Below are positions 46,000 through 63,223 of a stretch of 64,000 nucleotides of DNA, one piece after another (positions within the stretch are counted from its first letter, which is position 1; each line of letters begins with the position of its first letter). Below the pieces are notes generated by a model, which saw only the letters and a program-made list of their open reading frames with translations, searched no databases and was not told where the DNA came from. The stretch comes from Gemmatimonas sp. (lineage in GTDB: Bacteria; Gemmatimonadota; Gemmatimonadetes; Gemmatimonadales; Gemmatimonadaceae), in assembly GCA_965279375.1 (NCBI GenBank), contig OZ257156.1, positions 3,456,001 through 3,520,000 on the forward strand. Reading direction: 5' to 3'. Position numbers and translations under genes: made by a program.

Positions 46000-46532
46000 G
46001 TGCAACGACGACCACGGGTGAGTCGCCTGCCGCGCCGCTCGGTCGCGCGGCGTCCTCTACGCCGCAGTTCTGGGTGGTCGTGGCGATCGTGACAGTGATC
46101 GACTTCATCACCAAGGCCATCGCCGCTGAGCGGTTGGTGCCGCGTCATGTGCCGCACCCGATTATCGGCGACTTTCTGCGCTTCACGCTAGCTTACAATC
46201 CGGGTGCGGCATTCGGCATGCACCTCGGACCGGCGTCGCGTTGGATCTTTGCGACGTTGAGCGTCATCATCGTCGTCGTGCTGCTGCGCGCGACGGCCGA
46301 CCTCACGCGCGAGTCGCGTCTGGCTGCGATCGGAGTGCCGATCGTCATTGGCGGAGCGATCGGCAACTTGCTCGATCGGATTCGTTATCGGGATGGCGTA
46401 GTGGATTTCATTGACATCGGAGTGGGCGACGTGCGGTTCTGGACCTTCAACGTGGCCGACTCTGCGGTGACCGTCGGGGCAGTTTGTCTGGTGCTGGCGC
46501 TGTGGCGTCAGGACCAAGACGCGCAATCATGA
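45996..46532 (+). CDS. lspA: Lipoprotein signal peptidase II (copy 2)
   Basis: 'DFITK', 'NPGAAFG', 'GNLLDR', 'VVDFI' and 'FNVAD'. Confidence 0.93.
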   Translation: MSATTTTGESPAAPLGRAASSTPQFWVVVAIVTVIDFITKAIAAERLVPRHVPHPIIGDFLRFTLAYNPGAAFGMHLGPASRWIFATLSVIIVVVLLRATADLTRESRLAAIGVPIVIGGAIGNLLDRIRYRDGVVDFIDIGVGDVRFWTFNVADSAVTVGAVCLVLALWRQDQDAQS

Positions 46533-47585: not shown

Positions 47586-48002
47586 ATGTTGGACGACGAA
47601 GATCGGGCTTATGACGTGGTCGTGCGTGTCGCTGACCAACGCTACGGCATCCCGGTGTCGCAGGTCCGGGAGGTGCTGCGCCCGGGAGTGATCACGCGCG
47701 TGCCCGGCGCCCCCGAGATCGTGGTGGGTATCGTCAACGTGCGGGGCGCTGTCGTCACCGTGCTGGACCTTTCCGCACTGTTGACGGGAGAACGTGCCGT
47801 CACAGCGGCCTCGATCGTCCTGCTTGAGCACGGGACCCGCCTGGTTGGGCTGGCCGTGCAATCGGTGCGCGATGTCCGCACGATCCCGAGCGATGCTGAA
47901 GCCAGCAGCCTGGAGGTCGGCGCGGACGAGGACGTCGTACCGTTGGATGCGGCCGCGTTATGTGCGCGGCATCTGCTCTCTTCCGAGGAGATGCGACAGT
48001 GA
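47586..48002 (+). CDS. cheW: Chemotaxis adaptor CheW
   Basis: 'YGIPV.QVREV', 'ITRVPGAP..VVGIVNVRG.VV.V.DL' and 'GLAV'. Alternative GTG start at 47559. Confidence 0.85.
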   Translation: MLDDEDRAYDVVVRVADQRYGIPVSQVREVLRPGVITRVPGAPEIVVGIVNVRGAVVTVLDLSALLTGERAVTAASIVLLEHGTRLVGLAVQSVRDVRTIPSDAEASSLEVGADEDVVPLDAAALCARHLLSSEEMRQ

Positions 48003-48364
48003 GCCGGACGGTACTGATTTGCGACGATGCGATCTTCATGCGCACGATGGTGGGGGATATCCTCACGCAGGCGGGCTTCGAGATCATTGGCGAAGCGGAA
48101 ACGGGTGTGCAGGCGGTCGAGAAGTATCAGCAGCTCCGTCCTGATCTGGTGACGATGGACATCGTGATGCCCGACATGGGTGGCATCGACGCGGTCCGCG
48201 AGATCACCAAGCACGATCCGACGGCGCGCATTCTCATGTGCAGCGCGATGGGCCAGCAGGCGCTGGTGGTCGAAGCGATTCAGGCCGGCGCCAAGGACTT
48301 CGTCGTCAAGCCGTTTCAGCCGAGCCGAGTGCTCGAGGCCGTGACGCGCGTCCTCGCCGCGTAA
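47999..48364 (+). CDS. cheY: Chemotaxis response regulator CheY (Thermotoga/Bacillus-like)
   Basis: 'VLICDDAIFMR', phosphoacceptor 'VTMDIVMP', 'CSAMGQQ' and 'DFVVKPF'. Confidence 0.92.
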   Translation: MSRTVLICDDAIFMRTMVGDILTQAGFEIIGEAETGVQAVEKYQQLRPDLVTMDIVMPDMGGIDAVREITKHDPTARILMCSAMGQQALVVEAIQAGAKDFVVKPFQPSRVLEAVTRVLAA

Positions 48365-48398
48365 GCGGCAATCGCTCCGTCGTACCGGGACGCACGCG

Positions 48399-50306
48399 AT
48401 GGACCAAGCCCGATACGCGGAGCTCTTTCGCACCGAGTCGCGCGAGCATCTCGGCGAGATCGATGCGGCGCTGCTCGAGCTGGAACAGACGACCGATCGC
48501 ACGCGCCAGAGTGCCGCGATCGCCACACTGTTTCGCGGCACCCACACCATCAAGGGGATGGCGGGGGCGATGGGCTACGCAGTCGTCGAGCAGGTCGCGC
48601 ACGCACTGGAATCACTGCTCGAACGCATGCGGTCTGCCGGTGCATCGGTTGATCGTGCGCTGACTGCGCTGCTGTTCGATGGGAGCGACGCATTGCGTGT
48701 GGCGCTCGACGAAGCCGGCGCGGGGGATGCCCCCTCGAGTTCAGTGATCGAGGTGCTGGCACGGCTGCGCAGCACTGCGGGCGCGTCCGGTGCCGCTTCG
48801 GCCGCGCCGACGCCTGCGCCCAGTGTACCCTCGCTCGAGTCCGCGTCATCCTCGCCGACTGCAGAGACGGCCGCGATCGAGTCGCGCGTAGTCGACGTCG
48901 CACTGACTGCCGATTGTCCGCTCAAGGGCGTGCGCGCGATGCTGGTGATGGCGAGACTGCGCGCCGTGGCGACGGTGCACGCGGTGCAGCCGCCCGAAGA
49001 ACGCTGGGGCGACGAACGCTTTGACGGGGTTTTCGCCGCAAGCTTCTCCGGCGCGATCGATGCGACCGAACTCGAGGCAAGCCTGCGCGCGGCCGGTGAC
49101 GTTGCCAAGGTCCGCATTCGCGCCGCCGACCAAACGAACTCATCGCGCGCCGACAATGCGGCCATGCGCACAGTTCGTATCGACTTGCGTCGTCTCGACA
49201 CGCTGCTCGATCTGGTCGGTGAGTTGGTGATCACGCGCGACCGTTTGCTGCGCGAGACCGAACGCGCGATCGACTCGGGAGCAAACCGAGCGCTCGCGCG
49301 CGCTGCGCAGGACACGGCGCGACTGGTGAGTGCGTTGCAGGACGAAGTGCTGCAGGCGCGCATGGTGCCCGTTGGCCAGGTGTTCGACCGCTTCCCGCGT
49401 CTCGTGCGTGACGTGGCGCGCGAACTGGGCAAGGAAGTGCACTTCACCACAGAAGGGCGCGACCTCGAACTCGATCGATCACTCATCGATGCCATCGGTG
49501 ATCCGATCGTGCATCTGCTGCGCAACGCGCTCGATCATGGCATCGAGGAGCCCGCGCAGCGACGGGCGGCGGGAAAGCCGTCTACGGGTGAGTTGGTGCT
49601 ACGCGCCGGCCGTGACCGCGCAACAGTGGTGCTGCAGGTGGAGGACGACGGTGGTGGCATCGATCGCTTGGCGATTCTCGCGCGGGCGCAGGAGCAGCAG
49701 ATCGTAAGCGCAGACCTGACCACCCTCGACGACGATCAGCTGCTGATGGTTCTCGCACACCCGGGCTTCTCGACGGCGCGCGCGGTCACGGCGATCTCGG
49801 GACGAGGCGTGGGTGTCGATGTCGTCATGACGCGGGTGCGCGCGCTGGGCGGCACGCTGGAGGTGGAGACGCTCGAAGGGCAGGGCACCGTGTTCACGTT
49901 GCGCCTGCCGGCAACACTGGCCATCACGCGCGCGCTGCTGGTGCACGTAGGTGACGAAACGTACGCATTGCCTGCCGCACATGTGATCGAAGTCGCAGAA
50001 TACACGCCCGGCACGATCGTCACGGAGCAGGCGCACGAGCGCATGATGTGGCGTGATGAAATGCTGCCAGTGGTCCACCTTCGCGAGCGTTTCGGACACG
50101 CGCGCGCCGAACGTGAAACGTTTGTTGCCATCGTCGAATCGGCGGGACGACGCGCGGCATTGTTCGTTGATGCATTGCTCGCGCAACAGGACATCGTGGT
50201 CAAGCCGCTCGACGTGGTGCGTGGAAGTAGCGCGCTGTTCAGCGGCGCGACTGTGCTCGGTGACGGTAGCCCCGCACTCATCGTCGATGTAGGCGCGTTC
50301 TGCTGA
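48399..50306 (+). CDS. cheA: Chemotaxis histidine kinase CheA
   Basis: Hpt 'FRGTHTIKG', P2-like domain, 'LDLVGELVI', N-box 'HLLRNALDHG', 'DDGGGID', 'SGRGVG.DVV' and a C-terminal CheW domain. Confidence 0.95.
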   Translation: MDQARYAELFRTESREHLGEIDAALLELEQTTDRTRQSAAIATLFRGTHTIKGMAGAMGYAVVEQVAHALESLLERMRSAGASVDRALTALLFDGSDALRVALDEAGAGDAPSSSVIEVLARLRSTAGASGAASAAPTPAPSVPSLESASSSPTAETAAIESRVVDVALTADCPLKGVRAMLVMARLRAVATVHAVQPPEERWGDERFDGVFAASFSGAIDATELEASLRAAGDVAKVRIRAADQTNSSRADNAAMRTVRIDLRRLDTLLDLVGELVITRDRLLRETERAIDSGANRALARAAQDTARLVSALQDEVLQARMVPVGQVFDRFPRLVRDVARELGKEVHFTTEGRDLELDRSLIDAIGDPIVHLLRNALDHGIEEPAQRRAAGKPSTGELVLRAGRDRATVVLQVEDDGGGIDRLAILARAQEQQIVSADLTTLDDDQLLMVLAHPGFSTARAVTAISGRGVGVDVVMTRVRALGGTLEVETLEGQGTVFTLRLPATLAITRALLVHVGDETYALPAAHVIEVAEYTPGTIVTEQAHERMMWRDEMLPVVHLRERFGHARAERETFVAIVESAGRRAALFVDALLAQQDIVVKPLDVVRGSSALFSGATVLGDGSPALIVDVGAFC

Positions 50307-50395
50307 GCGAACACGCGCCTGTAGTCCAGCTGGATTCCGAACGACTACCGATCTGACGTGATCGTTGCGCTGCCCGAACTGAAAGCGGAGTGAAG

Positions 50396-51016
50396 ATGGA
50401 GGCGATTCGGTCGCTCAAGACGATACAGCTCGATGCGCTGCGCGAAACGGCGAACATCGGCGCGGGGCACGCCGCAACGGCGCTGTCGCAGATGACGGGC
50501 AGCACGATCATGATCAAGGTGCCCGCGATCAGCATCGCCAGCATCGATGATCTCCCCGCGCAGTTCACGGACGAAGAGGAGCCGGTCGCCGCGGTGCTCA
50601 TGCACATGCTCGGCGATTTGAGTGGACGCACCCTGCTCGTCTTTCCGCGTCCGACGGTGATGCGTCTTGCGGAACTGATGCTGCGTCGTCCCGTGGGCTC
50701 GTCGCTCGCGCTCGGTGAGCTGGAGACCTCGGCCATCAAGGAAGCGGGCAATATTCTCAGCGGCGCGTACATGAACGCGCTCAGCGACTTCCTCGGCATG
50801 CTGCTCCTCCCGTCACCGCCCACGCTGGTGATCGACATGTCCACGGCCGTGTTGAGCAGCGCCTTCGCCGAGTTTGCACCGGACCCGGACGCGATCATTT
50901 GCGTCGAGAGCGAGTTCATGCTCACCGAGACCGGTCACACGCTCCGCGGATTCTTCTTGCTTTTGCCGGACCCCGCGTCGCTGCAGGTGATGTTGCGCGC
51001 ACTGCGTCTCGCGTAA
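50396..51016 (+). CDS. cheC: CheY-P phosphatase CheC
   Basis: Two ExxN motifs: 'DALRETANIGAGHAATALS' and 'SAIKEAGNILSG.Y..AL'. Confidence 0.9.
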   Translation: MEAIRSLKTIQLDALRETANIGAGHAATALSQMTGSTIMIKVPAISIASIDDLPAQFTDEEEPVAAVLMHMLGDLSGRTLLVFPRPTVMRLAELMLRRPVGSSLALGELETSAIKEAGNILSGAYMNALSDFLGMLLLPSPPTLVIDMSTAVLSSAFAEFAPDPDAIICVESEFMLTETGHTLRGFFLLLPDPASLQVMLRALRLA

Positions 51017-51039
51017 CCCGCAGGTCAGGCGCAGTGCAG

Positions 51040-53676
51040 ATGGAGCCGATGGCCCCCGGAGGACGCGACGCCGAGCTGCTGCGCGCGATGCTGACGCGCA
51101 TCGATCAGCAGGACCCGGGTGCGTTCAACAACCTCGGCGTGCTGTATCACAGCAAGGGACTCTACGCCGAGGCGGTGGACGCCTTCCTGCGCGCGCTTGC
51201 CCTCGATCCTCGCATGCGGACGGCGGCGCGCAACCTCGAGATTGCGGCGACACGCGACGGTGCCTGCGACTCGCGTCTTGCGAGTTTAGCGGCCCGGCTG
51301 GAGATCGATGCAGACGACGTGGTGGCGCTGCGTGAGCGTGCGCGGCTGCTGCGACTCATCGGCCGCCACACGGAGGCCTCGCAACAACTCGACGCGCTGA
51401 TCGCGGCCGATCCCGACGATACCGCCTCACTCTTCGAGCGCGGACTGATCGAGCAGCGTGCGGGCGACCTGCGTCGCGCGCAGCGGTGGTTCGAGCGCGC
51501 AGTGAACGTGTCCTCCGGTGATCCGATTCCGCGGCTGCATCTCGCCGAGGTGCTGTACCAGCGAGGGCAGAACGAGCAGGCGCTGGAGGCGCTCGAGTCG
51601 CTGTTGACGTTGTGGCCGAACATGGCCGATGCGCACCTGCTGCACGGCTTCGTGCTCGGCGACATGGGGCGCCACGAGGCCGCACGCGATGCGTCGCGCA
51701 AGGCCTCTGCGCTCAACCCGTCGTTGCAGACACTGCAGCCCGATCTCTCGCTCGACGGTGGTGTGGCTCCGATTCCGTACGCACCCGTTCAGCGCGATGT
51801 CCCCGCTGAAGGCGCGTTGGCACGCTACGGACTTGGTCTGGCGTTTCGTCAGCGTGGCTACTTCGACGAAGCCCGCCGCGAGTTCGAGCGAGCGCTCGCG
51901 CAGGGTGAGGATGCGCGCCTTGCACGACACGCGATTGCCGAGCTCGATCTCGTCGCCGGTCGTTTCGCGGATGCTCGCGCCGCGTACGAACAGCTGCTGC
52001 AGGAGCAGGCCGACCAGCCGCGGCTCTGGAACGAGCGCGGCGCGGCGCTGCATCAGGGCGGTGATGTCGAAGGCGCGGCGGAGAGCTATCGACGTGCGCT
52101 GCGCATCGATCCGCGCTACGCAATTGCGTACAACAATCTTGGCGTCGCGCTTTCCGATCTCGGCGAGGCGTCGGCCGCGCGCGAGGCACTCTTGCGTGCG
52201 GTGGAGCTGGATGCTGCGCTCGCACGCCCCAAGCTGAATCTGGCACGCTGGTACGTGCGCCATCGCGATCCACTGGCCGCGCTGTCGTTGTTGCGCGAGT
52301 TCGTGGCGTTCCACGCGGACAATGCTGACGCGTGGCATGACCTGGGTGTCGTCTTTCAGCTGCTGCATCGCACCGATGAAGCCCGCGATGCGCTGGCGCG
52401 TGCCATCGAGCTGCGTCCCGATCACGCCGAGGCGCGGTACGCGCTGGCGCAGGTGCTGGCATCGTTGGGAGATGACGATGGCGCGCTGCGCGAGACGCAG
52501 CGTGCGTTGGGGCTCGCCCCGGTTCGTGTGGAGCCGCGACTGATCATCGTGATCGCGTTGCAACTCGAGTGTCCTGAAGCGGCTGGTCTGCTGGATCTGC
52601 TGGCGATCGCCGCGGATGTGCCGCTTGCCGGTGTGTCGCTCGACGAGCAGACGGTCGCCGGGTTGCTGCCGCAGTTGGAGCCAGTCGCGCCAATTGCCAT
52701 CGTCGACGATGTGGCCGCGCGAATCACGCGATTCTGCGAAGAGGGCGATGCCTTCGCCGCGCGGCGACTGCATGGCGAGGCCGGCGATCGTTACGCAGCC
52801 GCGCGCGGCTTACTGGAGGGCGAAGGGCTTCCTGCGATCAGCGGCGACGGCTCGCTGGGGCCGCTGTGGCATCGTGCGGTCGTTGGCGAGGCGCGCTCGC
52901 TCTGCCTGCTTGGCTCGGGACATCATGCGATGTCGCGACTGCGCGGTCTCGCGGCGCAGTATCCGGAGGACGCCGAAGTTGTGGCGCTCTTCGCGTCGAG
53001 TGCTGCCGCGGCTGCAGCCCGTCAGGAGGCACCGGCTGAGGTCGTACCAGTGCTGCTGCGTCGGCTGCTGCGGCTGGAAACCGACAGTGCGGCACTGCTG
53101 CACTTCGCAGGCGACACGGCGGTGAGTATCGGAGATGGCGTCCTCGCGCTCGCCTGCTACCGGCGTGCGCTCGCGATCGACCCAACTCGGCCATCGCCGC
53201 GCGTGGCCATCGCGCGCGTGTTACGTCATCGGGGCGATCTGCAGGCCGCACGGCTGGAGCTCGTAGCGGCGCTGGCGACTGCGCCGGAGTTCCGCGATGC
53301 GCTGTTGGAGTTGGCGCGCGTGAACCTCGCGACGCGAACGGTGCGCGAGTCTGTCGCCGGACTCACGCGACATCTCGCTGCCGTACCGACAGACCTCGAC
53401 GCGCTCGTGCTGCTGATCGAACTGCTCGTGGCAGTTGACCGTGATGCTGACGCGCGTGTGGCGGTCAGTCGCGTGCTCCGGCATGACGCAGAGCATGTCG
53501 GTGCGCTCTGGTTTGACGGGGTTTTGCTCGCTCGACAGTCGCGCATGCGCGAAGCCGTCGATCGGTGGATGCGGGTGCAGCGTTCTTCCGATGACGAATT
53601 CGCGCCGCGTGCGACGAAGGCATTGGCGAAGGTCGAGGAACGTGAGCAGCTGAGCGATCTGCGGAAGGCTTCGTGA
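51040..53676 (+). CDS. Large cytoplasmic TPR-repeat protein
   Basis: Many TPR motifs ('AFNNLGVLY', 'AYNNLGVAL', 'AWHDLGVVF') and no signal peptide. Confidence 0.88.
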   Translation: MEPMAPGGRDAELLRAMLTRIDQQDPGAFNNLGVLYHSKGLYAEAVDAFLRALALDPRMRTAARNLEIAATRDGACDSRLASLAARLEIDADDVVALRERARLLRLIGRHTEASQQLDALIAADPDDTASLFERGLIEQRAGDLRRAQRWFERAVNVSSGDPIPRLHLAEVLYQRGQNEQALEALESLLTLWPNMADAHLLHGFVLGDMGRHEAARDASRKASALNPSLQTLQPDLSLDGGVAPIPYAPVQRDVPAEGALARYGLGLAFRQRGYFDEARREFERALAQGEDARLARHAIAELDLVAGRFADARAAYEQLLQEQADQPRLWNERGAALHQGGDVEGAAESYRRALRIDPRYAIAYNNLGVALSDLGEASAAREALLRAVELDAALARPKLNLARWYVRHRDPLAALSLLREFVAFHADNADAWHDLGVVFQLLHRTDEARDALARAIELRPDHAEARYALAQVLASLGDDDGALRETQRALGLAPVRVEPRLIIVIALQLECPEAAGLLDLLAIAADVPLAGVSLDEQTVAGLLPQLEPVAPIAIVDDVAARITRFCEEGDAFAARRLHGEAGDRYAAARGLLEGEGLPAISGDGSLGPLWHRAVVGEARSLCLLGSGHHAMSRLRGLAAQYPEDAEVVALFASSAAAAAARQEAPAEVVPVLLRRLLRLETDSAALLHFAGDTAVSIGDGVLALACYRRALAIDPTRPSPRVAIARVLRHRGDLQAARLELVAALATAPEFRDALLELARVNLATRTVRESVAGLTRHLAAVPTDLDALVLLIELLVAVDRDADARVAVSRVLRHDAEHVGALWFDGVLLARQSRMREAVDRWMRVQRSSDDEFAPRATKALAKVEEREQLSDLRKAS

Positions 53677-54842
53677 GCCTCGAAGGACGCATCCGCGACC
53701 TCGGCCTGCCGGAGGTCTGCCAGCTGCTCGGGGCGAGCCGCAAGACCGGCACGCTGCGCGTGCTCGCACCTCTTCGAGCCCGCGACGCCGAGATTCGGTT
53801 CATAAGTGGACAGATCGCCGACGCCCGACAGTGGCAGACTGACGTGCCTCTGAACGAGCTGCCGGCGTCGGTGCCTACGCCCGATGCTCGTGCGGTCGAG
53901 GCGTGCGTGCTCGAAGTCCTCACTTGGGGGGATGGCGAGTTCCAGTTTGTGGCCGAGAAGGGAGCTACCCGATCGGCCAGTCCGGTTCGATTGAACGTGG
54001 AGCCGCTGCTCGTTGAGGCGGCGCAACGCGCCGAGGTGTGGCAGCGCGTGCGCGATCGCATCGCGGGCCCGCAGGCAGTGCCTGCCTTCGTCGACATCGA
54101 TCCGCAACAGCTCCCATTGCTACGGCTCGTGCCGCAGGAGTGGGAAGTGCTCACCCGGGTCGATGGTGCGCGGGATCTGCAGGCGCTCGCCGCGGTGCTG
54201 GGGCGCAGTTTGCTCGACGTCGCGCAGATCGTGCACGCGCTCGTCGGCGCGGGCGTGCTCGCCATTCGCGATCTGACCATCGCGCCACGGCGACACCCCA
54301 CGCCGCCGACGCAGTTGGCCGTGCCGTCATGGCCGGACGCGTTCGATCCCGACGACGATGAGCGTGTGCTCGACGCCGGTGACCTTCTCGCCGACGCGTT
54401 CCGCGCCGACGCGCTCGACGCCGGAGATTCGAGTGACATCGACGACGCCGTCTTCGATCCGATTGCCGCTGGTGTGACGGATGCGGACGGAATTCCCCGT
54501 CGACTAACGCCGCGCACCACCGACGTTATCGCCGTTTCGGATCGAGTATTGCAGGCGGCGTCGACGCTCGAATTCCCCAGTGAAAATGCCGTTGCGTCCT
54601 CGCCAGTGCAGCAGTCCTTGTCGCAGGAGACGCGGCAACGTCGTGCCAGCGGGGTGAGCGCAGTGACGCTGTGCCTGCATGGTGACGATGCCGCCCGACA
54701 TGGTGACTTGGCGGGTGCGTTGACGTGCTGGAGTGCGGCGCTACGTGCCGATGCGACGTCCATCGACGCGGATCGGGTGCGCGAGGCGATTGCGCTTGCT
54801 GCTCGTCTGCACGCGTTGCTGCACCCGTCGGGACGAAGCTAG
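53673..54842 (+). CDS. DUF4388 (PatA-N-like) protein with winged-helix-like segment and acidic linker
   Basis: 'LEGRIRDLGLPEVCQLL..SRKTGTL', 'LTWGDGEFQF', 'LLVEAA.R..W' and 'EWEVL..VDG.R'. Confidence 0.8.
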   Translation: MSLEGRIRDLGLPEVCQLLGASRKTGTLRVLAPLRARDAEIRFISGQIADARQWQTDVPLNELPASVPTPDARAVEACVLEVLTWGDGEFQFVAEKGATRSASPVRLNVEPLLVEAAQRAEVWQRVRDRIAGPQAVPAFVDIDPQQLPLLRLVPQEWEVLTRVDGARDLQALAAVLGRSLLDVAQIVHALVGAGVLAIRDLTIAPRRHPTPPTQLAVPSWPDAFDPDDDERVLDAGDLLADAFRADALDAGDSSDIDDAVFDPIAAGVTDADGIPRRLTPRTTDVIAVSDRVLQAASTLEFPSENAVASSPVQQSLSQETRQRRASGVSAVTLCLHGDDAARHGDLAGALTCWSAALRADATSIDADRVREAIALAARLHALLHPSGRS

Positions 54843-54867
54843 AACGCAGTCAGAGAGGAGCGGGCGA

Positions 54868-55506
54868 ATGCCCATCGTAGATCACGCCACGCGGCTGATC
54901 ACATGCAAGCTGGTCTACTACGGACCGGGTCGATCGGGAAAGACGACGAACCTGACCTACCTGCACTCGGCGTTGCCGAGCGGGCAGGTGGGCTCGCTCA
55001 CGTCACTCGCGACTCGCCGCGACCGCACGCTCTTCTTCGACTACCTGCCGGTGGATCTCGGAACGGTCGGCGCGTACAAGGTGCGCTTTCAGCTCTACAC
55101 CGTTCCCGGCCAGCCGTACTACCGCAGCATTCGCCAGCTTGTGCTGCAGGGCGCTGACGGCGTCGCGTTCGTTGCGGACAGCCAGCGCCATCGCTGGGAA
55201 GACAACATCGACAGCATGCAGGACATGCACGCGAACCTGGCCGAGCACGGCATCGACGCGCGCGCGCTCCCGATGGTCATGCAGTACAACAAGCAGGATC
55301 TTCCGCCATCGCTGGCGGCCACCGTCCCCGAGCTGTCGCGCGCGCTGAACTTTCGCGGCGTTCCTGAGTTCGGCGCCGACGCTCCGAATGGCATCGGCGT
55401 GTTCGACACGCTGCGCGCACTCGGCATGCGCGTGCTGCGTCGCCTTGGCGCCGACAGCGCAGCGGAAGACGAACGGCATGACGGCATCACGGCAGGTGCG
55501 GCATGA
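54868..55506 (+). CDS. mglA: MglA-family small GTPase
   Basis: 'KLVYYGPGRSGKTTNL', 'DRTLFFDYLP', 'LYTVPGQ', 'FVADSQ', 'QYNKQDL' and 'GVFDTL'. Confidence 0.92.
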   Translation: MPIVDHATRLITCKLVYYGPGRSGKTTNLTYLHSALPSGQVGSLTSLATRRDRTLFFDYLPVDLGTVGAYKVRFQLYTVPGQPYYRSIRQLVLQGADGVAFVADSQRHRWEDNIDSMQDMHANLAEHGIDARALPMVMQYNKQDLPPSLAATVPELSRALNFRGVPEFGADAPNGIGVFDTLRALGMRVLRRLGADSAAEDERHDGITAGAA

Positions 55507-57467
55507 CACCGCACCCGGAGGAGCCGGCCTACCGCTTCGACAACTTCGTGGTGGGCGCGTCAAACCGACTCGCGTCGTCCGCAGCCATGGCCGTGGCCGA
55601 TGCACCGGGGGCGGCGTACAATCCGTTGTTCGTCTACGGGGACTCGGGGCTGGGCAAGACGCATCTCGTCGCGGCGATCGCCCATCGCGCGCTGGCGTCG
55701 CGTCCGGAGTTGCGTGTCGAACTGAGTAGCGGTGAGGAGCTGGCCGAGCGATTGCACCAGGCGATCGCGACCGGGCAACAGGAGCAGTTCACCGAGCGCT
55801 ATCGACAGGTGCAGCTGCTGGTGCTCGATGACGTGCAGTTTCTCGCCGGCCAGCGGGAGACGCAGAGTGAGTTGCTGCGGCTGTTCAATCTCATGCAGGG
55901 CGCCGGCCGTCAACTGGTGATGACCAGTGATCGACCACCCAGCGAAATCCCGGACGTCGATCAGCGCCTGCTGTCGCGCTTCTCCGGTGGGTTGATCGTG
56001 GATGTGGGCGCGCCCGATTACGAGATGCGTCTGGCCATTCTGCGAAACGCGGCCGACGTACGTGCCCTGCAGTTTGGCGACGGCGTGCTCGAGGAAATGG
56101 CGCGACTTGCCTTCGGCAACGTGCGTGAACTCAAGGGCGCGCTGAACAAGATCACGGCATTCCAGCAGCTCGATGGCACGGTCATCACGCCCAATGACGT
56201 GCGCGCCGTGCTGGGCGAGCGCGCGTCGGTGGCGTCCGCTCCCGACCGTCGCGACGTCGCGCCGACGATGCTTGGCGCGGAGTATGAAGGCTTCCTCGCC
56301 GATGTGCTGCAGGAGGTCGAGACGCGCGTGGAGAAGTGGCGCGTGGTGTTGGGTGAAGCCTGCAGCTATTGGCGTGCGGAAGGGTTTGTCACGCAGGTAT
56401 TGGAGCGTGCGGTCGCGCATCCTGTCCAGCCCGACGTGAACGGACTGCTCGCCACGTTCAGCGCGGCGGTCGAGCATCTGCGCGCGATCGAGGCGCAGGC
56501 GGTGCTCCTCGATCCTGCGCTCCGCGGCCACAGTGCCTTTCGCAATCCCGAAGCGGTGGCGGAAGCGCAGGCGTTGCTCGATCGTGCGATGGCGACTGCC
56601 ATTCCGCTGCCTGCGCCCAATGCGGCGTTTACACGAGATGCTCTTGAAGTGGGCAGCGCCAATCAACTGGCGCTCAAGGCCTTCGACGCCGTGGTCGAGC
56701 ATCCGGGCGCGCGCTACAACCCGCTCTTCGTGCACGGCCCGAGTGGAGTGGGGAAGACGCACGTGCTGCACGCATTGGGCAATGCCATGCGCGCGGCGTG
56801 GCCCGAGAAGGCGATCGCGTGCGTGACCGGCGTGGCCTTCGGGGACGAATTGGTGCAGGCGCTGCAGGAGGGCGGGGTGGAGCGGTGGCGTGCGCGCTAT
56901 CGCGCCGCTGACGTGCTGCTGGTGGACGATGTCCATTCTCTGCGCGACCTCGAGCGGACGCAGGAAGAACTCTTCCACCTCTTCAATCACGTGTACGATC
57001 GCGGGGGGCAGATCGTGCTCACGGCCGATCGTCCTCCGCGTGAGTTGACGGGCTTTGCCGATCGACTGCGGTCGCGATTCGAAGGCGGCCTGGTGGTGGC
57101 GATGCATGGCCCCGATCGCGCACTCCGCGAACGACTCGTCTCGCGCTGGCTCGCTGAAGCGGCTGCTGAGCCCACGCAGGAGTTGGTCGCGATGCTCGCT
57201 GATCGCGACGTCAGCAGCGTGCGCGAGCTCAACGGACTCTTCAAGCGCATCGAAGCCGCCTCCGATCTGAACGGTTTTGCGATCAGCCTCGAGTCCGCGC
57301 AGCGCGCACTCGGCATTCAGCCGACGCGCGTCACCCGTCGTGTGCCCACACGTGTCCTATCCACCGGCGCGGACGGAGTGTCCATCGACGACTTCTTTCT
57401 CGATCGCGAGAAGATGATTCTCGATTGGCCCGAGATCGGCGGACGCGTGATCGAGGAGCTGCGCTGA
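55503..57467 (+). CDS. Protein with two tandem DnaA/Hda-type AAA+ modules; no DnaA domains I, II or IV
   Basis: Module 1: 'YRFDNFVVGASNRLA, YNPLFVYGDSGLGKTHL, LDDVQF, TSDRPP, RLLSRF, NVRELKG'. Module 2: 'YNPLFVHGPSGVGKTHV, VDDVH, TQEELFHLFN, TADRPP, RLRSRF, SVRELNG'. Confidence 0.9.
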   Translation: MTPHPEEPAYRFDNFVVGASNRLASSAAMAVADAPGAAYNPLFVYGDSGLGKTHLVAAIAHRALASRPELRVELSSGEELAERLHQAIATGQQEQFTERYRQVQLLVLDDVQFLAGQRETQSELLRLFNLMQGAGRQLVMTSDRPPSEIPDVDQRLLSRFSGGLIVDVGAPDYEMRLAILRNAADVRALQFGDGVLEEMARLAFGNVRELKGALNKITAFQQLDGTVITPNDVRAVLGERASVASAPDRRDVAPTMLGAEYEGFLADVLQEVETRVEKWRVVLGEACSYWRAEGFVTQVLERAVAHPVQPDVNGLLATFSAAVEHLRAIEAQAVLLDPALRGHSAFRNPEAVAEAQALLDRAMATAIPLPAPNAAFTRDALEVGSANQLALKAFDAVVEHPGARYNPLFVHGPSGVGKTHVLHALGNAMRAAWPEKAIACVTGVAFGDELVQALQEGGVERWRARYRAADVLLVDDVHSLRDLERTQEELFHLFNHVYDRGGQIVLTADRPPRELTGFADRLRSRFEGGLVVAMHGPDRALRERLVSRWLAEAAAEPTQELVAMLADRDVSSVRELNGLFKRIEAASDLNGFAISLESAQRALGIQPTRVTRRVPTRVLSTGADGVSIDDFFLDREKMILDWPEIGGRVIEELR

Positions 57468-59188
57468 TGGCCATCCGCGGCAACTTGAATGAGGCGAGTC
57501 TCGCCGACGTGCTGCAGCTCCTGGCCCTTGGTCAAAAGACCGGATGCCTCAGCGTGGCACGCGAAGGCAGCTTCGGCACCATCCACTTCGACGGTGGACG
57601 CATCGTCTTCGCGTCCATCGTCAACCGGCGCGATCGCCTTGGCGATCGGCTGGTACGCAACGGTGCTATCGCCGCCGATACGCTGGCGCGACTGGTGGGC
57701 ACCGCAGCGCCCAACGACGATCGAGCACTCGCTGTGGCGTTGCTCGATCGCGGTCTCGTGGACTTCGACCAGCTCGAAGCGATCTACCGGGTACACGTCG
57801 AAGAGTCGGTCTACTTCCTGCTCGGTTGGACACAGGGGACGTTCACCTTCGAGGCTGCGCCGCGCGCCGACGAGTCGGACATCCTCGTTTCCATCAGCGC
57901 AGATTCGCTGCTGCTGGAGGGGGCTCGTCGCGTCGACGAGTGGACGCTGGTCGCGAAGAAGATCCCGAGTCTCGATCTGATCTTCGAAGCGGACATCACG
58001 CGTCTCGCCGGCCGCGAGGCGCCGCTGAGCGCGACGCAGGAGAAGCTGCTGCCACTGCTCGATGGCACGCAGGACGTCAACAGCATCATCGAACGTTCTG
58101 GGCTCGGCGAGTTTGAGGTAGGCAAGGCGCTCTTCGGCTTGCTGACCGCGGGATACGTGCAGCGTGTCGGGCGCAGCGCGGCACGGCGTCCGCCGCCGCC
58201 AGAGAGCCGTGTGGCGGAGCACCGAAACCTTGGCGTCGCGTTCTATCGCACGGGGCTGTACGACGAGGCGCAGCGGGAATTCCGCCGCGTGCTCGAACTG
58301 CGCGACAGCGACAGTGCGGCGCGATTCCACTTGGGTCTCGTGCATCTGCGTCGCGGCGAGTGGGATGAAGCCGTCTCGGTGCTCCAGCGAGCCACCGCGG
58401 AACCGGACGCGCCGGCCGCGGCCTTTCACAATCTCGCGTACGCCTGCGAGCGGCTCGGACGATTGGACGATGCCCGAGCCATGCTGGCCGAGTCGGAGCG
58501 TCGTCAGACCGCGGGCGACCCGCGCACCCAGCTGTCGTTGGCAATCGTCGCGCTGACGGCGGGTGAGTTGGTGGCGGCGGAATCGCACTTGGCGTCGGCG
58601 CGCGAGCTCTGGGGCGCGCGCCAGCCGTCGGCGGCGTGGTTTCACGCGGCGGGGCTCACGGCGGCGCTCGCCGGCGACTTGCCACGCGCCACGCGCGTGC
58701 TGGAGGAAGGGATCGGCATGCACCCCCATGCGGCGACCTTGCACAACAATCTCGCGGTGGTGCACGAACGCCGTGGCAGCTACGAACTCGCTGCTCGTAC
58801 CATCGAGCACGCGCTGCTGGAGGACGCCAACGCTGCGCATCTGCACAAGAACCTTGGCGACTATCTGTATCGAGCGCAGAGGTACGACGAGGCGTTCGAG
58901 GCATTCACACGCGTCGTGCGCCTCGACGCCACGCACGGCGCCGATGTGCACCTCAAGCTTGGCAACATTCTCTATCGCCGCGGGGAGCTGCGTGACGCGC
59001 AACTCGCCTGGGAGCGGGCACAAGTGATCGAGCCACACAACGCTATCGTGCGAGCCAATCTCGACGCATTGGGACGTGCCGACCTTCGCGAGTCTTCGCG
59101 CGGGAGCCGGGCCACTTCACCCGCGCTGCGCACGGTCACTGATCCGTCGCCCGCGTCAACGACAGCGATGGCCGAGGAAGCGGCATGA
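57467..59188 (+). CDS. DUF4388 (PatA-N-like) + winged-helix-like + TPR protein
   Basis: 'IRGNL.EASLADVLQLL..GQKTGCL', 'W.QGTFTF', 'LLLEGARRVDEW' and C-terminal TPRs ('HRNLGVAFY', 'LHNNLAVV', 'LHKNLGDYLY'). Confidence 0.85.
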   Translation: MAIRGNLNEASLADVLQLLALGQKTGCLSVAREGSFGTIHFDGGRIVFASIVNRRDRLGDRLVRNGAIAADTLARLVGTAAPNDDRALAVALLDRGLVDFDQLEAIYRVHVEESVYFLLGWTQGTFTFEAAPRADESDILVSISADSLLLEGARRVDEWTLVAKKIPSLDLIFEADITRLAGREAPLSATQEKLLPLLDGTQDVNSIIERSGLGEFEVGKALFGLLTAGYVQRVGRSAARRPPPPESRVAEHRNLGVAFYRTGLYDEAQREFRRVLELRDSDSAARFHLGLVHLRRGEWDEAVSVLQRATAEPDAPAAAFHNLAYACERLGRLDDARAMLAESERRQTAGDPRTQLSLAIVALTAGELVAAESHLASARELWGARQPSAAWFHAAGLTAALAGDLPRATRVLEEGIGMHPHAATLHNNLAVVHERRGSYELAARTIEHALLEDANAAHLHKNLGDYLYRAQRYDEAFEAFTRVVRLDATHGADVHLKLGNILYRRGELRDAQLAWERAQVIEPHNAIVRANLDALGRADLRESSRGSRATSPALRTVTDPSPASTTAMAEEAA

Positions 59189-59664
59189 GCGAAATCCAGG
59201 TTCGTATTGCCGACTATGCGGTGGCCGGCAGTGAGTCGGTGCTCGTGACCAACGGCATCGGCTCGTGTGTCGCGATCGCGCTGTATGAGCGCGAGGCGCG
59301 GGTGGGAGCGCTGGCGCACATTCTGCTCCCCAACGAGGTGCTCACCGCGTCGCAGGAACCGCCGGGCAAGTGCGCATCATCGGCGATTCCGGTGATGGTG
59401 CGGCGCATGCGTGAGCTCAAGGGCACTGGTGAGATCCAGGCGCGGCTGATTGGCGGCGCCAGCATGTTCGCGCCTTTGCTGATTCCCGGTGCGCTCTCGC
59501 TCGGCGCGCGGAACATCGCAGCCGCGCGGGCCGCACTCGCTGCGGCGGACATTCCCGTGGTGGGCGAAGACGTCGGCGGCGATCACGGACGGTCGGTGCA
59601 CTTCGCGCTCGAGGATGGCAGTCTGTTGGTCAGGTCCGTGGCGAAGGGCGATGTCCGACTCTAG
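59185..59664 (+). CDS. cheD: Chemoreceptor glutamine deamidase CheD
   Basis: 'GIGSCVAI' (Cys), 'LAHILLP' (His), 'GGASMF', 'GARN' and 'EDVGG..GRSV'. Confidence 0.9.
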   Translation: MSEIQVRIADYAVAGSESVLVTNGIGSCVAIALYEREARVGALAHILLPNEVLTASQEPPGKCASSAIPVMVRRMRELKGTGEIQARLIGGASMFAPLLIPGALSLGARNIAAARAALAAADIPVVGEDVGGDHGRSVHFALEDGSLLVRSVAKGDVRL

Positions 59665-60793
59665 CGCTCCACTTCGTCGCGTCGGCGAGGGCTCCCGGCC
59701 ACGCGTGCTCGTCGTGGACGACAGCGCGTTCATGCGTCGCATCGTCAGTGATGTCGTTGCATCGAGCGGCGAGTTCGAAGTGGTGGGGACGGCGCGCGAC
59801 GGCGTGGATGCGTTGCGACAGGTGACGCGCCTCGATCCAGACATCGTCACGCTCGACGTGGACATGCCCGAGATGGATGGCTTGTCCGTGCTGCGCTGCA
59901 TCATGCAGGAGAATCCGCGCGCCGTCGTCATGCTCAGTGCAGGTGGAGCAGATGGCGGGGCTGATGCGACGCTGCGCGCGCTGGAACTCGGCGCCGTGGA
60001 GTTCGTGCGCAAACCGTCGGGAGCGATCAGTCTGGATCTCGAAGACGTGTCGGAGCAGCTGCTCGACGCACTCCGCGCCGCCGCGTGCATCAACCTCGAT
60101 ATTCTTCCGCGCCCGGTCGATCGCGGTGCTATCGCCGTGGAGTTGCCGCCGCACCAGCAGCACTCAGGACGTCGGGCCACGCAGCTCGTGTGCATCGCGG
60201 CCTCCACGGGTGGCCCTGCGGCACTGGCCAAGGTCATTCCCAAGCTGCCGCGGTTTGCGCAGACGGCGGTTGTGATCGTGCAGCACATGCCCGCCGGATT
60301 CACCGCGAGCTTCGCCGCACGGTTACGCGGCGCCTCGCGCCTGCCGGTGCACGAGGCGCGCAATGGCGATGCGTTGTTTGCGGGGCACGTCTATGTCGCG
60401 CCGGGCGGCTTTCATCTGCGTGTGGGCGGTCCGGCCGGTCTGCCGGCGCTCTTTCTGGACTGCGGCCCGACGGAATGGGGCGTGCGCCCTGCCGCCGATC
60501 CGCTGTTCAAGTCTGCGGTGCCGTACTTCGGCGCGGCGATCATTGGCGTGGTCATGACCGGCATGGGCTGCGACGGCGCGGCTGGCTTGGCCGCCGTGCG
60601 CAACGCTGGCGGTCTGGCGCTCATTCAGCAGCGCGATACGGCCGTGATTCCCGGCATGCCCGATGCCGCGCTGCGCACCGCAGGTGCCGATCGCATTGTC
60701 ACGCTGGACGAAATGGCAGACGCGATCGTCGAGTGCAACGCTCTGCGCGAGTCGAGTGCGAGCGATTCGTCGCTCTTCGAGGTCGCGTCGTGA
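59651..60793 (+). CDS. cheB: Protein-glutamate methylesterase CheB
   Basis: Receiver 'VLVVDDSAFMR..TLDVDMP' and triad 'ASTGGP', 'VQHMP', 'MTGMG.DG'. Confidence 0.94.
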   Translation: MSDSSAPLRRVGEGSRPRVLVVDDSAFMRRIVSDVVASSGEFEVVGTARDGVDALRQVTRLDPDIVTLDVDMPEMDGLSVLRCIMQENPRAVVMLSAGGADGGADATLRALELGAVEFVRKPSGAISLDLEDVSEQLLDALRAAACINLDILPRPVDRGAIAVELPPHQQHSGRRATQLVCIAASTGGPAALAKVIPKLPRFAQTAVVIVQHMPAGFTASFAARLRGASRLPVHEARNGDALFAGHVYVAPGGFHLRVGGPAGLPALFLDCGPTEWGVRPAADPLFKSAVPYFGAAIIGVVMTGMGCDGAAGLAAVRNAGGLALIQQRDTAVIPGMPDAALRTAGADRIVTLDEMADAIVECNALRESSASDSSLFEVAS

Positions 60794-61323
60794 GCACCGG
60801 TCAGTTCCGCTCGACGACCATGTTCGCGCCCCGCGCCCGCGCATCGGTTCCAGCGGTGGATCGCGCGACGTTCGTTGTCTTTGCGATGGCCGATCGGCGC
60901 TTCGCCGTGCCGGTCGAATCGGTGGAGCGGGTGCTGCGGGACTCGGTGGCGGCAGGTCCGGCGACCACTGCTGCGTCGGTGAACTACGGTGGCCAGTCGT
61001 ATGCCGTGGCCGATCTGGCCAGCGCGCTCGGTGTGGAGTTTGCACCCACGGCGGCGTCGCGTGTGCTGGTGCTGTCGGGCGGTGGAGAGCATCGCGCGGT
61101 GATCGTGGATCGGGTGCTGGAAGTCGCCACGATCGATGCCGGTATCGTGGAGGCGGCGGACGCGGTGCACGACGGGATCGCGGCGCTGCCGAACGCGGGC
61201 GTGCGCGGCGTCTTCACACGCAATGGCGCAGCGGTGATTGTTCTCGATGTCTCGCGCCTCCTCGACGAGACGTTGCACACCGCCCACGGCCCCGCCGCTT
61301 TCCGCAAGGAACGTTCGTCATGA
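60790..61323 (+). CDS. Divergent CheW-like protein
   Basis: 'FVVF.MADRRFAVPVESVERV', 'AVIVDRV' and 'VRGV....IVLDV..LL'. Confidence 0.75.
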   Translation: MSTGQFRSTTMFAPRARASVPAVDRATFVVFAMADRRFAVPVESVERVLRDSVAAGPATTAASVNYGGQSYAVADLASALGVEFAPTAASRVLVLSGGGEHRAVIVDRVLEVATIDAGIVEAADAVHDGIAALPNAGVRGVFTRNGAAVIVLDVSRLLDETLHTAHGPAAFRKERSS

Positions 61324-62180
61324 CGAGCAGCCCGCTGTCCGAACTGCAATCGCTGCGCGCACGACAGGCCGCGATCGCGTCGGCCTTGTCGGCCAGCCCC
61401 AGCGCGGAATCGCGAGCACAACTCAAGCAGGACATCATCGCGCTCTTTCGCGAGACCGATGCGGTCTACGCAGCGCTGGGCGAGCTAAAGTCCGACGTGA
61501 AGGCGTTGGCGGAGACGTGGAAGCAATTGGACGGCCGAAGCGCATCCAGTCCGCACGCCGGCGTCTCATCGCGGGTCGATCACTTGGGCGCGTCGACCTT
61601 CGTCGAGAAGGGGTGGTCCAAGCTCTCGCTCGGCGATGCGGCAGGCGCTGAAGTGGCGCTGCGGCGCGCGTTGGAACTGGCGCCGGCGGATGACGAAGCG
61701 GAAACGCTGCTCGGCTGGGCGCAGATGCTCCAGGAGCAGTATGACAGTGCGTTGCTCACGTTCCACAACGTGCTCATGCGCGACCCGCAGAACACGCTTG
61801 CCCGCACGAACGTGGGATTCATCTGTCTGCGCAAGAAGAGCTACGGCGAAGCCATCGAACATCTTTCGCGCGCCATTCGCATCGACAGCGATCGCAAGGC
61901 CACGCTGTACGCTCATCTCTATCTCGGCATGGTCTACCGCGAGCGTGAGATGTACGCCGACGCAGAACTGTTCTTCCGCAAGGCGATCGAGCTCGGACCG
62001 AATCTGATTCAGGCGTGGTACGAATTGGGTCGTGCCCGCTGGTTCGCCGGGGAGCACGCCGGTGCGCGCGATGCGTGGCGTGCCGGTGCGGAGGCCAACA
62101 AGTTCAATCCATGGGGAAAGCGCTGCGCCGAAACGCTGGAGTCGGTCGATCGTGGGGAGGCTCCGCCGCGCGACGCGTAG
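61320..62180 (+). CDS. TPR protein with N-terminal coiled coil
   Basis: Heptad-like N-terminus and TPRs ('ARTNVGFI', 'AHLYLGMVY', 'AWYELGRA'). Confidence 0.85.
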   Translation: MTSSPLSELQSLRARQAAIASALSASPSAESRAQLKQDIIALFRETDAVYAALGELKSDVKALAETWKQLDGRSASSPHAGVSSRVDHLGASTFVEKGWSKLSLGDAAGAEVALRRALELAPADDEAETLLGWAQMLQEQYDSALLTFHNVLMRDPQNTLARTNVGFICLRKKSYGEAIEHLSRAIRIDSDRKATLYAHLYLGMVYREREMYADAELFFRKAIELGPNLIQAWYELGRARWFAGEHAGARDAWRAGAEANKFNPWGKRCAETLESVDRGEAPPRDA

Positions 62181-62194
62181 TTGCCTCGCTCGCG

Positions 62195-63223
62195 ATGGTG
62201 GCGGGCCTGGCTTTCACCGCGATGTCTCAAGAGCCGATCGCCTTGCGCGGCGGCGTCCAGCTGAGTCGTGGCCGCTTTACCGTAGTGGCCGACCAGCGCG
62301 ATGCGCGACTCGCACAGTCGCTGCTCAATTCCGCGCTCGCGCAGGACAGCTTTCCGGGGCTGCCGCGCCCCAAGGCTCAAGTCCTGATCGGCGTCGCGCC
62401 CAACGCGGCGCGCTTTCGCTCCTGGGTGGGACCCAACGCGCCAGAGTGGGGCGCTGCCATCGCGTTCCCTTCGCAGCAGCGCATCGTGATGCAGGGCAGT
62501 GGAGCCGGGAGCGACGCGGGCGATCCACTGGTGGTGCTGCGCCACGAACTGGCGCATCTGGCGCTGCACGAGGCGCTGGGCCCTCTGCCGCCGCGCTGGT
62601 TCGACGAGGGCTACGCCAGTGTGAGTGCGCGTGAGTGGAGCCGAGAGCGCACCATCGAGACGTCGAGCGGGATGGTGTTCAAGTCGCTCCCCAATCTTGA
62701 GGCACTCGAAGAGGGCTTCGCGGGGCACGAAGGCGAGGCGAACTGGAGCTATGCGCTGGCCTATCGCGCCGTGGATGAGCTGGCTGCACTCGATTCCCGC
62801 AACGGCCTGACGAATTTTTTCGCCGAGTGGAAACGCTCAGGGACGTTCGAGCGGGCAGTGCGTAGCGCGTACGGGATGACGGGCGAGCAGTTCGACAAGC
62901 ACTGGCGCACGCAGACTCGGCGCCGGTACGGTGCGCTGGCCGTGCTGACGGATGCGTCCGCGGCCATCGGGTTCTTTGGGCTGCTGCTGGGGCCGCTGTT
63001 CTGGATGCGTTGGCGTCGGGACCGCCGCCGGCTGGAGGCGATGCGGGTGGCGGATCGAGCGCAGGAGCGCGCGGCGCGGGAGAGCGCGCTGGAGGCGATT
63101 TTGGCCGGTGAGACCGGTGACCAACCGGTGGGTTCGACGAGTTCGGTGAGTGAAGGCACGTCGGCGGAGGGACCGTCGGCGGAGGCCGGGTCGGCGCCTT
63201 CGAGCACGCCAATTTCCCACTGA
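62195..63223 (+). CDS. Peptidase MA-like (gluzincin) membrane-anchored protein
   Basis: HEXXH 'HELAH' with downstream 'PRWFDEG' and a C-terminal TM helix followed by an Arg-rich stop-transfer. Start uncertain. Confidence 0.75.
   Translation: MVAGLAFTAMSQEPIALRGGVQLSRGRFTVVADQRDARLAQSLLNSALAQDSFPGLPRPKAQVLIGVAPNAARFRSWVGPNAPEWGAAIAFPSQQRIVMQGSGAGSDAGDPLVVLRHELAHLALHEALGPLPPRWFDEGYASVSAREWSRERTIETSSGMVFKSLPNLEALEEGFAGHEGEANWSYALAYRAVDELAALDSRNGLTNFFAEWKRSGTFERAVRSAYGMTGEQFDKHWRTQTRRRYGALAVLTDASAAIGFFGLLLGPLFWMRWRRDRRRLEAMRVADRAQERAARESALEAILAGETGDQPVGSTSSVSEGTSAEGPSAEAGSAPSSTPISH

Follow-up and report, generated by a model that had tools for sequence, protein, structure and literature searches.

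The stretch examined here, 64,000 nucleotides of Gemmatimonas sp. DNA (contig OZ257156.1, positions 3,456,001 to 3,520,000; hereafter the window), raises the question of what a chemosensory operon does when it encloses an MglA GTPase, PATAN-type (DUF4388) proteins, tetratricopeptide repeat (TPR) scaffolds and a tandem DnaA-type ATPase. The 13 genes concerned occupy positions 47586..62180 of the forward strand. The operon is real, it is conserved in the phylum Gemmatimonadota and, as far as the literature was searched, it is undescribed as a system; it represents chemosensory-GTPase signalling with an undescribed kind of component. The answer that we favour, at a little less than an even chance, is that a PATAN-TPR hub (DUF4388-TPR) is the point where an F1/Dif-like Che pathway, an MglA switch and a DnaA-derived ATPase meet; the hub would set where and when type IV pili are active, or else a surface behaviour linked to them.

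Gene content and conservation of the operon

A first-pass annotation, made by a model from the letters alone, had listed 13 co-oriented genes with named domains, among them PATAN-type proteins and an MglA GTPase, and eight overlapping junctions. Pfam searches and translations confirmed the domains of all 13 open reading frames (ORFs), with PF14332 on both DUF4388a and DUF4388-TPR. Reading of the sequence likewise bore out the overlaps at 8 of the 12 junctions: GTGA at 47999, 53673 and 60790, ATGA at 55503, 59185 and 61320, TGATG at 57465-57469, and the cheB ATG at 59651, which overlaps the cheD stop (59664) by 14 nt. The remaining four junctions are gaps of 34, 83, 23 and 25 nt. A promoter-type scan returned 0 sigma-70-like sites (1.8 expected) and 12 terminator-like sites (9.7 expected). 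The genes, in their order, and the parts of the ATPase are:

47586..48002, forward: cheW (PF01584, E 8e-24), starting at ATG 47586
47999..48364, forward: cheY, stand-alone receiver, 75-96% identity across the order; acceptor Asp, Ser and Lys intact
48399..50306, forward: cheA, Hpt-P2-dimerisation-HATPase-CheW (Pfam), without receiver; Hpt His intact
50390..51016, forward: cheC, phosphatase with both E-x-x-N motifs
51040..53676, forward: TPR1, 878-aa TPR scaffold (Pfam), in 51 of the 65 stretches compared below
53673..54842, forward: DUF4388a, with PATAN-type domain (PF14332, E 1e-14), conserved ~85-aa domain and low-complexity tail
54868..55506, forward: mglA-2, Group 1 MglA paralogue, an orphan (no roadblock gene adjoining)
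55503..57467, forward: (AAA+)2, tandem DnaA-type AAA+ ATPase of 654 aa (Bac_DnaA twice), built as D1, helical repeat, D2 and conserved tail
55521..56222, forward: ATPase D1 (aa 7-240); Walker A/B, sensor I, Arg finger and sensor II intact
56298..56618, forward: ATPase linker (aa 266-372), one copy of a ~100-aa helical repeat
56619..57302, forward: ATPase D2 (aa 373-600), motifs intact in the window copy
57357..57464, forward: ATPase C-terminal tail (aa 619-654) with a conserved Trp, of low-confidence structure when modelled alone
57467..59188, forward: DUF4388-TPR, with PATAN-type domain (PF14332, E 3e-31), ~85-aa domain and TPR array
59185..59664, forward: cheD, catalytic Cys and His positions conserved
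59651..60793, forward: cheB, REC and methylesterase; Ser/His/Asp motifs intact, NCBIfam above cut-off
60790..61323, forward: cheW2, divergent CheW, 25-43% identity to relatives
61320..62180, forward: TPR2, N-terminal helical part and strongly conserved TPRs, in 51 of the 65 stretches
62195..63223, forward: peptidase-MA gene of the flanking backbone, which stays where the operon is lost (L093)

Searching 301 genomes of the phylum with the ATPase gave 150 listed matches at E 1.6e-109 or better, most covering both domains; this tally takes in four unpublished genomes (G156, G057, G181, G097), which support nothing else stated here. We retrieved 64 regions, none longer than 20 kb (48 picked by the ATPase, 11 by operon-type mglA and 5 by position), which together with the window make 65 stretches, one of them without any match. 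Two regions placed by a weak ftsA-like match (L095, L096) did not yield the locus and are counted as misses. The cheY-cheA-cheC core was found in 54/65 stretches and mglA also in 54/65; the ATPase was present in 57/65, next to mglA in 51/65, and was followed directly 3' by DUF4388-TPR in 57/57. All three blocks (Che core; mglA; ATPase with DUF4388-TPR) are present in 49/65 stretches, so that gene-neighbourhood comparison upheld the expectation of a conserved gene order. As the same order recurs in families f1-f4 of the phylum, with 35-60% protein identity across the four, it is not due to chance.

The blocks are nevertheless separable. Che genes occur without an operon mglA (L050, L092, L094), mglA without the Che core (L078, L083), Che genes and mglA without the ATPase (L085, L088), and the ATPase with DUF4388-TPR without Che or mglA (L071-L075; family f7 has the order rluD-ATPase-DUF4388TPR-peptidase). 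The earlier suggestion that the output runs through MglA is not borne out by these losses, which speak against a strict line from CheY to MglA to the ATPase. The most retained gene is DUF4388-TPR (62/65 stretches), and this retention together with the loss pattern makes it the likeliest hub of the system.

In its usual form the operon counts 17 genes, four more than in the window: most relatives carry three roadblock genes before mglA and a cheR before cheD, the latter directly after DUF4388-TPR in 41 stretches. The window and all six fetched relatives of its genus are without cheR and without all three roadblock genes; judged by this comparison of sequences, the window operon is a reduced copy, the genus having lost cheR and three roadblock (MglB-like) genes. 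The annotation had placed a non-Che module between cheC and cheD as normal neighbours; this position holds in the window, and what fails is the neighbourhood, as in the usual form cheR, not cheC, adjoins cheD. Nor is the system self-contained as had been proposed, with receptors encoded elsewhere and MglB-like genes and cheR missing from the window copy.

The product of mglA-2 was identified as MglA by PDB match (E 6e-64). Aligned to Myxococcus xanthus MglA (5ymx), it retains G1, the switch Arg-Thr, TVPGQ and NKxD, the motifs of Group 1, so that this part of the annotation also held; it shows about 19 fixed changes within the genus. A canonical mglB-mglA pair lies elsewhere in the genome (C1:3060364-3061596; 46% identical). 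The three genes before mglA (TPR-roadblock, roadblock, roadblock) are found in 42 of the 54 stretches with mglA, and Pfam Robl_LC7 was detected in 11/11 roadblock genes tested, three of them below cut-off. No MglB gene adjoins mglA in the window and 9 other stretches, and genome-wide roadblock queries matched only the canonical MglB. With the roadblock genes and cheR gone in the genus, MglA-2 must either function as an orphan or rely on an MglB supplied in trans. A candidate for such a partner in trans is encoded by an orphan roadblock gene (G000 C1:3663238-3664346) that immediately precedes the gene of a stand-alone receiver. In genus g39 (L067, L068, L091) the operon MglA is degenerate (33-36% identity, with altered motifs in L067) and cheR, cheD and cheB are lost.

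The source genome is one contig of 5.31 Mb, 99.95% complete, and wherever a relative of the ATPase carries a name, the record is of Gemmatimonas or Gemmatimonadaceae. The operon lies inside a housekeeping backbone, preceded by ileS-dksA-lspA-lspA-rluD and followed by the peptidase-MA gene, tRNA-Val and the rsmH-to-ftsZ cluster, and its GC content (0.65-0.68) is in line with that of the window. Host-like GC and fixed flanks rule out a recent insertion. Upstream, the window carries a tandem lspA (signal peptidase II) pair (45466-46532) where several relatives have only one lspA, and, at 40127-41660, an ORF that inspection marks as divIVA-like, with a purine nucleoside phosphorylase-like gene after it; the latter is split over two overlapping frames here versus a single frame in L072 and L073.

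The tandem ATPase, its predicted partner and an archaeal link

In the AlphaFold prediction a helical domain separates two folds of the DnaA domain III type (predicted local distance difference test, pLDDT, 89.9; predicted template modelling score 0.54), and the fold matched 8bv3 with a template modelling score of 0.94 of the target and a root-mean-square deviation of 1.5. Walker A/B, sensors and the Arg finger of an AAA+ domain III are present. The D1 motifs are kept in 45-48 of 48 sequences; in D2 the Walker A Lys is kept in 41/48 (lost in f7) and the Arg finger in 47/48. Retention of the D2 Arg finger despite a dead Walker A suggests action in trans inside an oligomer. Searches with the ATPase gave neither domain I nor domain IV of DnaA: Pfam had none among the 25 families shown out of 27, and PDB matches did not extend beyond domain III. 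The DnaA model TIGR00362 reaches its cut-off on the protein only with two stretches, and the Hda model TIGR03420 scores 162.6 against a cut-off of 194.8; there are also two AAA+ domains instead of the single one of Hda.

In Bacillus subtilis DnaA, residues I190, K222 and T225 contact single-stranded DNA (ssDNA) and K222Q blocks unwinding (10.1101/2022.03.18.484894). At these positions the window ATPase has H/Q/T in D1 and V/L/T in D2. An unrooted tree of 70 AAA+ rows, using 18 of the 48 loci, was built with 17 initiator matches (the named ones from Bacillota and Omnitrophota) and the DnaA of the source genome, a narrow set whose long branches may attract. D1 and D2 each formed a group and together split from the rest at 99/94; all 18 initiators, the source genome's DnaA included, split from the Gemmatimonadota and archaeal domains at 99/96. 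A role as replication initiator is ruled out by the lack of a DNA-binding domain, the canonical dnaA elsewhere (C1:1198743) and the separate placement in the tree, and the annotation's view of a repurposed DnaA-like ATPase is thereby borne out. The database label 'chromosomal replication initiator DnaA', given to this ATPase and to the archaeal proteins below, is misleading.

Several loci carry altered forms of the gene. The ATPase is absent from the locus in L083, L085, L088 and L092-L094; in L083 (G113) an ORF of up to 272 aa between mglA and DUF4388-TPR keeps the ATPase tail motif without AAA+ domain or repeat. A shorter ATPase of about 580-600 aa, without D2 lid and sensor II and with the tail kept, occurs in several relatives within the genus (L031-L033, L035 and L036). 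In L084, L090 and L046 the gene runs over two frames, the break in L084 and L090 lying between D1 and the repeat-D2-tail part; this is either assembly error or real fission.

The model of DUF4388-TPR (residues 1-535) with ATPase residues 258-654 scored 0.84, and the best of three controls 0.00. Of 157 solved complexes 116 attained the mark for this score, as did 2 of 215 mismatches (a rough calibration, as our own alignments were used). The runs agree in at least 49% of contacts, with a partner pLDDT of at least 76, and all confident contacts join the ATPase tail (aa 619-654) to TPR residues 283-493 of DUF4388-TPR. A shortened DUF4388-TPR (425-476 aa) was found in 5/5 loci without the ATPase versus 1/56 loci with it. 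Docking of the tail in the TPR groove, as predicted, is thus supported by the model and, independently, by shortening of the hub upon ATPase loss.

The helical repeat leads to archaea. A profile of the linker matched 538 cluster representatives, and 28 of the best 150 hold 4-18 repeat copies; best single-copy scores were 21-46 bits, versus at most 11.4 for reversed and 6.4 for shuffled sequences. Among those 28, five end in a DnaA-type domain and others begin with a DUF835 or KaiC-like domain. For these large repeat proteins a taxon is known for L097, P0274 and the Atlas cluster only: L097 holds one repeat-DnaA-type gene on a contig titled Thermoplasmata archaeon, and P0274 a related domain on a 3.58-Mb Thermoplasmata contig. 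A profile of the N-domain plus repeat matched 39/121 genomes of Thermoplasmatota. N-domain, repeats and ATPase stand in one frame in 6/20 fetched archaeal regions, and none had matches to the mglA, cheY or DUF4388 profiles.

The archaeal N-domain may be PATAN-like, which is a lead and not a result. Against two DUF4388 profiles it gave E 3e-4 and 1.5e-3, with seven controls at 0.039 or worse; an earlier hhalign comparison, based on 6 sequences, gave only E 0.013-0.043. The predicted succession of strands and helices in the N-domain agrees with that of PATAN. A fold search with the N-domain and first repeat gave no Foldseek match at E 0.001, the N-domain being barely probed, and its best VIA hits (Z 7.5) were generic helical bundles; a search of the ESM Atlas with the linker gave no usable match. 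We consider it possible, and somewhat doubtful, that the AAA+ core of DnaA was recruited outside replication into a family of ATP-switched scaffolds with the repeat and a PATAN-type partner, fused in Thermoplasmatota and split in Gemmatimonadota, where it would sit at the junction of a chemosensory kinase and a Ras-like GTPase. For the convergence on the hub that we favour, it counts that the archaeal fusions unite a PATAN-like domain, the repeat and a DnaA-type domain in a single chain; against it count the weakness of the PATAN likeness (best E 3e-4, probability 40%) and the absence of a roadblock match in the single archaeal genome tested.

Thermoplasmatota genes with the same N-domain and no repeat match, often in tandem pairs and mostly without a Pfam family, are found in L122-L126, L130 and L131. 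The archaeon G301 encodes a second DnaA-type protein of 426 aa (L129:9517-10794) beside a DUF835-SAP gene and a proteasomal ATPase.

Input, proposed mechanism and alternatives

Chemosensory pathways of class F1 have a CheA with P2 and no fused receiver, accompanied by CheC and CheD, and their receptors belong to class 44H. The operon CheA has P2 and lacks a fused receiver, and both CheC and CheD are encoded. The best NCBIfam models of CheA and CheY are CheA_Halo and CheY_Halo. For these two proteins, as for CheC and CheD, the closest models derive from halophiles and Thermotogales, and all scores stay below cut-off; the catalytic motifs of the Che proteins are intact. The gene string contains none of the 14 methyl-accepting chemotaxis proteins (MCPs) and none of the 4 cheR genes of the genome. 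Two of the 14 MCPs, encoded in trans, have long arms of the 44H type, and one of these aligns ungapped over 178 aa to Thermotoga maritima 2ch7, a class 44H receptor. An orthologue of this MCP (E 1e-45) occurs in 39/48 genomes with the Che core versus 1/9 without it; receptor class and co-occurrence are the grounds for its proposed pairing with the operon. L059 (G039) retains cheY-cheA-cheC, with a CheA lacking its CheW domain and with cheW, cheR, cheD and cheB gone; no MCP match was found in this 99% complete genome, which makes it a receptor-less kinase set.

No FliM match was found in 24 of the 43 operon carriers searched, near-closed genomes such as G141 (1 contig) and G040 (3 contigs) among them, which supports a non-flagellar output. 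In these 24, matches to the CheA dimerisation domain number one in 20 genomes (in 19 of them inside the fetched operon), two in 3 and none in 1; the operon CheA is thus the only chemosensory kinase found in many non-flagellated Gemmatimonadota. The source genome has FliM, two other che clusters and 12 shorter-class MCPs. The best reading of the Che part, from its domains and genomic spread, is an F1/Dif-like pathway that would not need flagella. PilM was found in 42/43 carriers.

We propose the following mechanism. Orphan 44H-type receptors and CheW would control CheA, which would phosphorylate CheY; CheC and CheD would reset CheY, and CheB, with CheR where kept, would provide adaptation. The ATPase would bind DUF4388-TPR by its tail, as model and co-loss suggest, and D1 and D2, whose motifs are present, would form an ATP-gated DnaA-like oligomer with the D2 Arg finger in trans, a scaffold and not an initiator. 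The PATAN proteins, which lack a receiver, may be the target of phosphorylated CheY, in the manner of a PatA split in two; MglA-2 and its roadblock partners may toggle the assembly via TPR1 or DUF4388a, TPR1 being a candidate MglA effector by analogy to SgmX. Solely by analogy to Synechocystis, where PATAN binds PilB1 and PilC (10.1101/2021.06.11.447907), the PATAN domains might act on the pilus motor PilB/PilC. We infer the polar location, the pilus output and every link of CheY or MglA to the hub.

A number of observations weigh against this convergence on the hub. The stretches were mostly picked by the ATPase, which inflates its co-occurrence counts, and kin are not independent. The Che, MglA and ATPase blocks are each lost separately, so their coupling is not obligate. 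Peptide binding by TPRs is a common solved mode, and passing the model mark may reflect that likeness; TPR erosion in ATPase-less loci is 0.56 at modelled contacts versus 0.55 at other TPR columns, and the five loci represent three genera. The family D2 mostly keeps the ssDNA residues (I/V 44, K 27, T 26 of 48), so D2 may bind nucleic acid. No pilus gene lies within the locus, and PilM, with 71/74 genomes searched, is not discriminating.

The same gene set could serve a Dif-like control of exopolysaccharide or biofilm matrix, with pili as the input and with MglA and the ATPase placing or gating the signalling complex. We regard this as unlikely: no MCP stands in the cluster, no exopolysaccharide or EpsW-like gene adjoins it and the 57/57 linkage of ATPase and hub would go unexplained, even though the order cheW-cheY-cheA-cheC presumably matches difC-D-E-G and the carriers include non-flagellar ones. 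The component set (CheW, CheY, CheA, CheC, CheD, CheR) and the 44H receptors match Dif-like clusters as well (PMC2577667, PMC3945109). Ordinary flagellar F1 chemotaxis with accessory localisation factors would fit the FliM of the source genome and the nearest NCBIfam models, which belong to archaeal and Thermotogales motility systems, yet the genome already holds two other che clusters with 12 shorter-class MCPs; as a general role we reject it on the 24/43 carriers without a FliM match, G141 and G040 included, and in any form it seems highly improbable.

A cell-cycle or division switch, in which the ATPase, controlled by Che and MglA, acts on DnaA or ssDNA (Hda-like or as co-polymer) or marks the pole where a cell divides or buds, draws on the position of the locus between a divIVA-like gene with ileS-lspA-rluD and rsmH-ftsI-mur-ftsA-ftsZ (names by inspection of translations), on the D2 Arg finger (47/48, even with a dead Walker A), on the ssDNA residues largely retained by D2 and the archaeal domains, and on a 44H-type MCP 4 kb from dnaA. 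The six ATPase-less loci show that the ATPase is dispensable; its window copy has His/Gln at I190/K222 in D1 and Leu at K222 in D2, the Hda model stays below cut-off, and the tail was modelled on a TPR protein, not on replication proteins (the ATPase-hub pair being the only one modelled), all of which leaves such a switch rather improbable. We give a similarly small chance to mere neighbourhood, in which an F1 Che set, a cassette of MglA, roadblock and PATAN genes and an old pairing of ATPase and DUF4388-TPR would have gathered at one housekeeping site for largely separate work. Separate loss of each block, f7 with its rluD-ATPase-DUF4388TPR-peptidase string (L071-L075) and the PATAN-MglA-MglB cassettes without che genes that are common in Table S2 of PMC4316618 are what such gathering would produce; Che genes on both sides of the other blocks, overlapping stops and starts, a string kept at 35-60% identity in four families and a DUF4388-TPR that stays with whichever block survives (62/65) are not. 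That 44H-type MCP (L079:8151-9920) is the second of its kind and has no recognised periplasmic sensor domain; it lies 4 kb after dnaA-dnaN.

If convergence on the PATAN-TPR hub is true, the ATPase of a replication initiator was turned into a signalling component, one whose 36-residue tail in a TPR groove offers a testable interface and which a shared domain links to uncultured archaea. The operon occurs in culturable bacteria, with natural deletions of each block.

Comparison with known systems

No description of the gene string or of repeat-linked ATPases was found in the literature searched, which left subscription journals mostly outside; within that scope the annotation's statement that no characterised system has this composition stands. 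The portions of PMC11580455, PMC5847659, PMC10782961, PMC6876712 and PMC11016934 at hand do not describe the system.

With DnaA domain III and Hda the ATPase shares the fold and the Walker, sensor and Arg-finger motifs. Unlike them it pairs two AAA+ domains across a helical repeat and lacks domains I and IV; it also has a modelled TPR-binding tail and falls outside the initiator group. Like the repeat-rod DnaA-type proteins of Thermoplasmatota (the L097 ORF, P0274), it carries, immediately ahead of a DnaA-type domain that lacks a DNA-binding domain, the same ~100-aa repeat, and the N-domain of the rods has a PATAN-like pattern. The rods differ: they combine eight repeats with a single ATPase domain, terminate in zinc ribbons or DUF835 and keep the ssDNA residues, and the 20 fetched regions show no che or mglA neighbours.

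PATAN genes near Group 1 MglA were reported by Wuichet and Sogaard-Andersen (2015; PMC4316618), whose Table S2 gives Gemmatimonas aurantiaca GAU_1409 as 'PATAN>MglA>-PATAN>'. The window shows this arrangement; the GAU_1409 row, unlike the string here, names neither che genes nor the ATPase. With cyanobacterial PatA-type regulators the PATAN proteins here share the PATAN/DUF4388 domain; unlike them they have no fused receiver, and one bears a TPR array.

The Dif system of M. xanthus and the Dif-like clusters of Geobacter resemble the operon in clustering CheW, CheY, CheA, CheC and CheD (here with CheR in relatives), in 44H receptors and in a non-flagellar output. Dif-like clusters carry their MCP in the cluster (PMC2577667), and DifA is of class 44H (PMC3945109); here, by contrast, there is no MCP in the cluster, CheB is present, and cheC is separated from cheR/cheD by inserted genes for MglA, roadblock, PATAN and TPR proteins and the ATPase.

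The Frz kinase FrzE is of the CheA-receiver hybrid type. The operon CheA has no receiver and is accompanied by CheC and CheD, a second, canonical mglBA pair lies elsewhere, and a DnaA-type ATPase and PATAN proteins are included, all unlike the Frz pathway. What the operon shares with the M. xanthus Frz-MglA/MglB/RomR-SgmX pathway is chemosensory input, a Group 1 MglA with the same catalytic motifs, large TPR proteins and, in most relatives, roadblock partners. In Myxococcus, where the route from chemosensory signal to MglA is partly open and the genes are scattered, mglA does not lie near its partners (PMC4316618); here all the genes, and with them the candidate parts of such a route, form one string.

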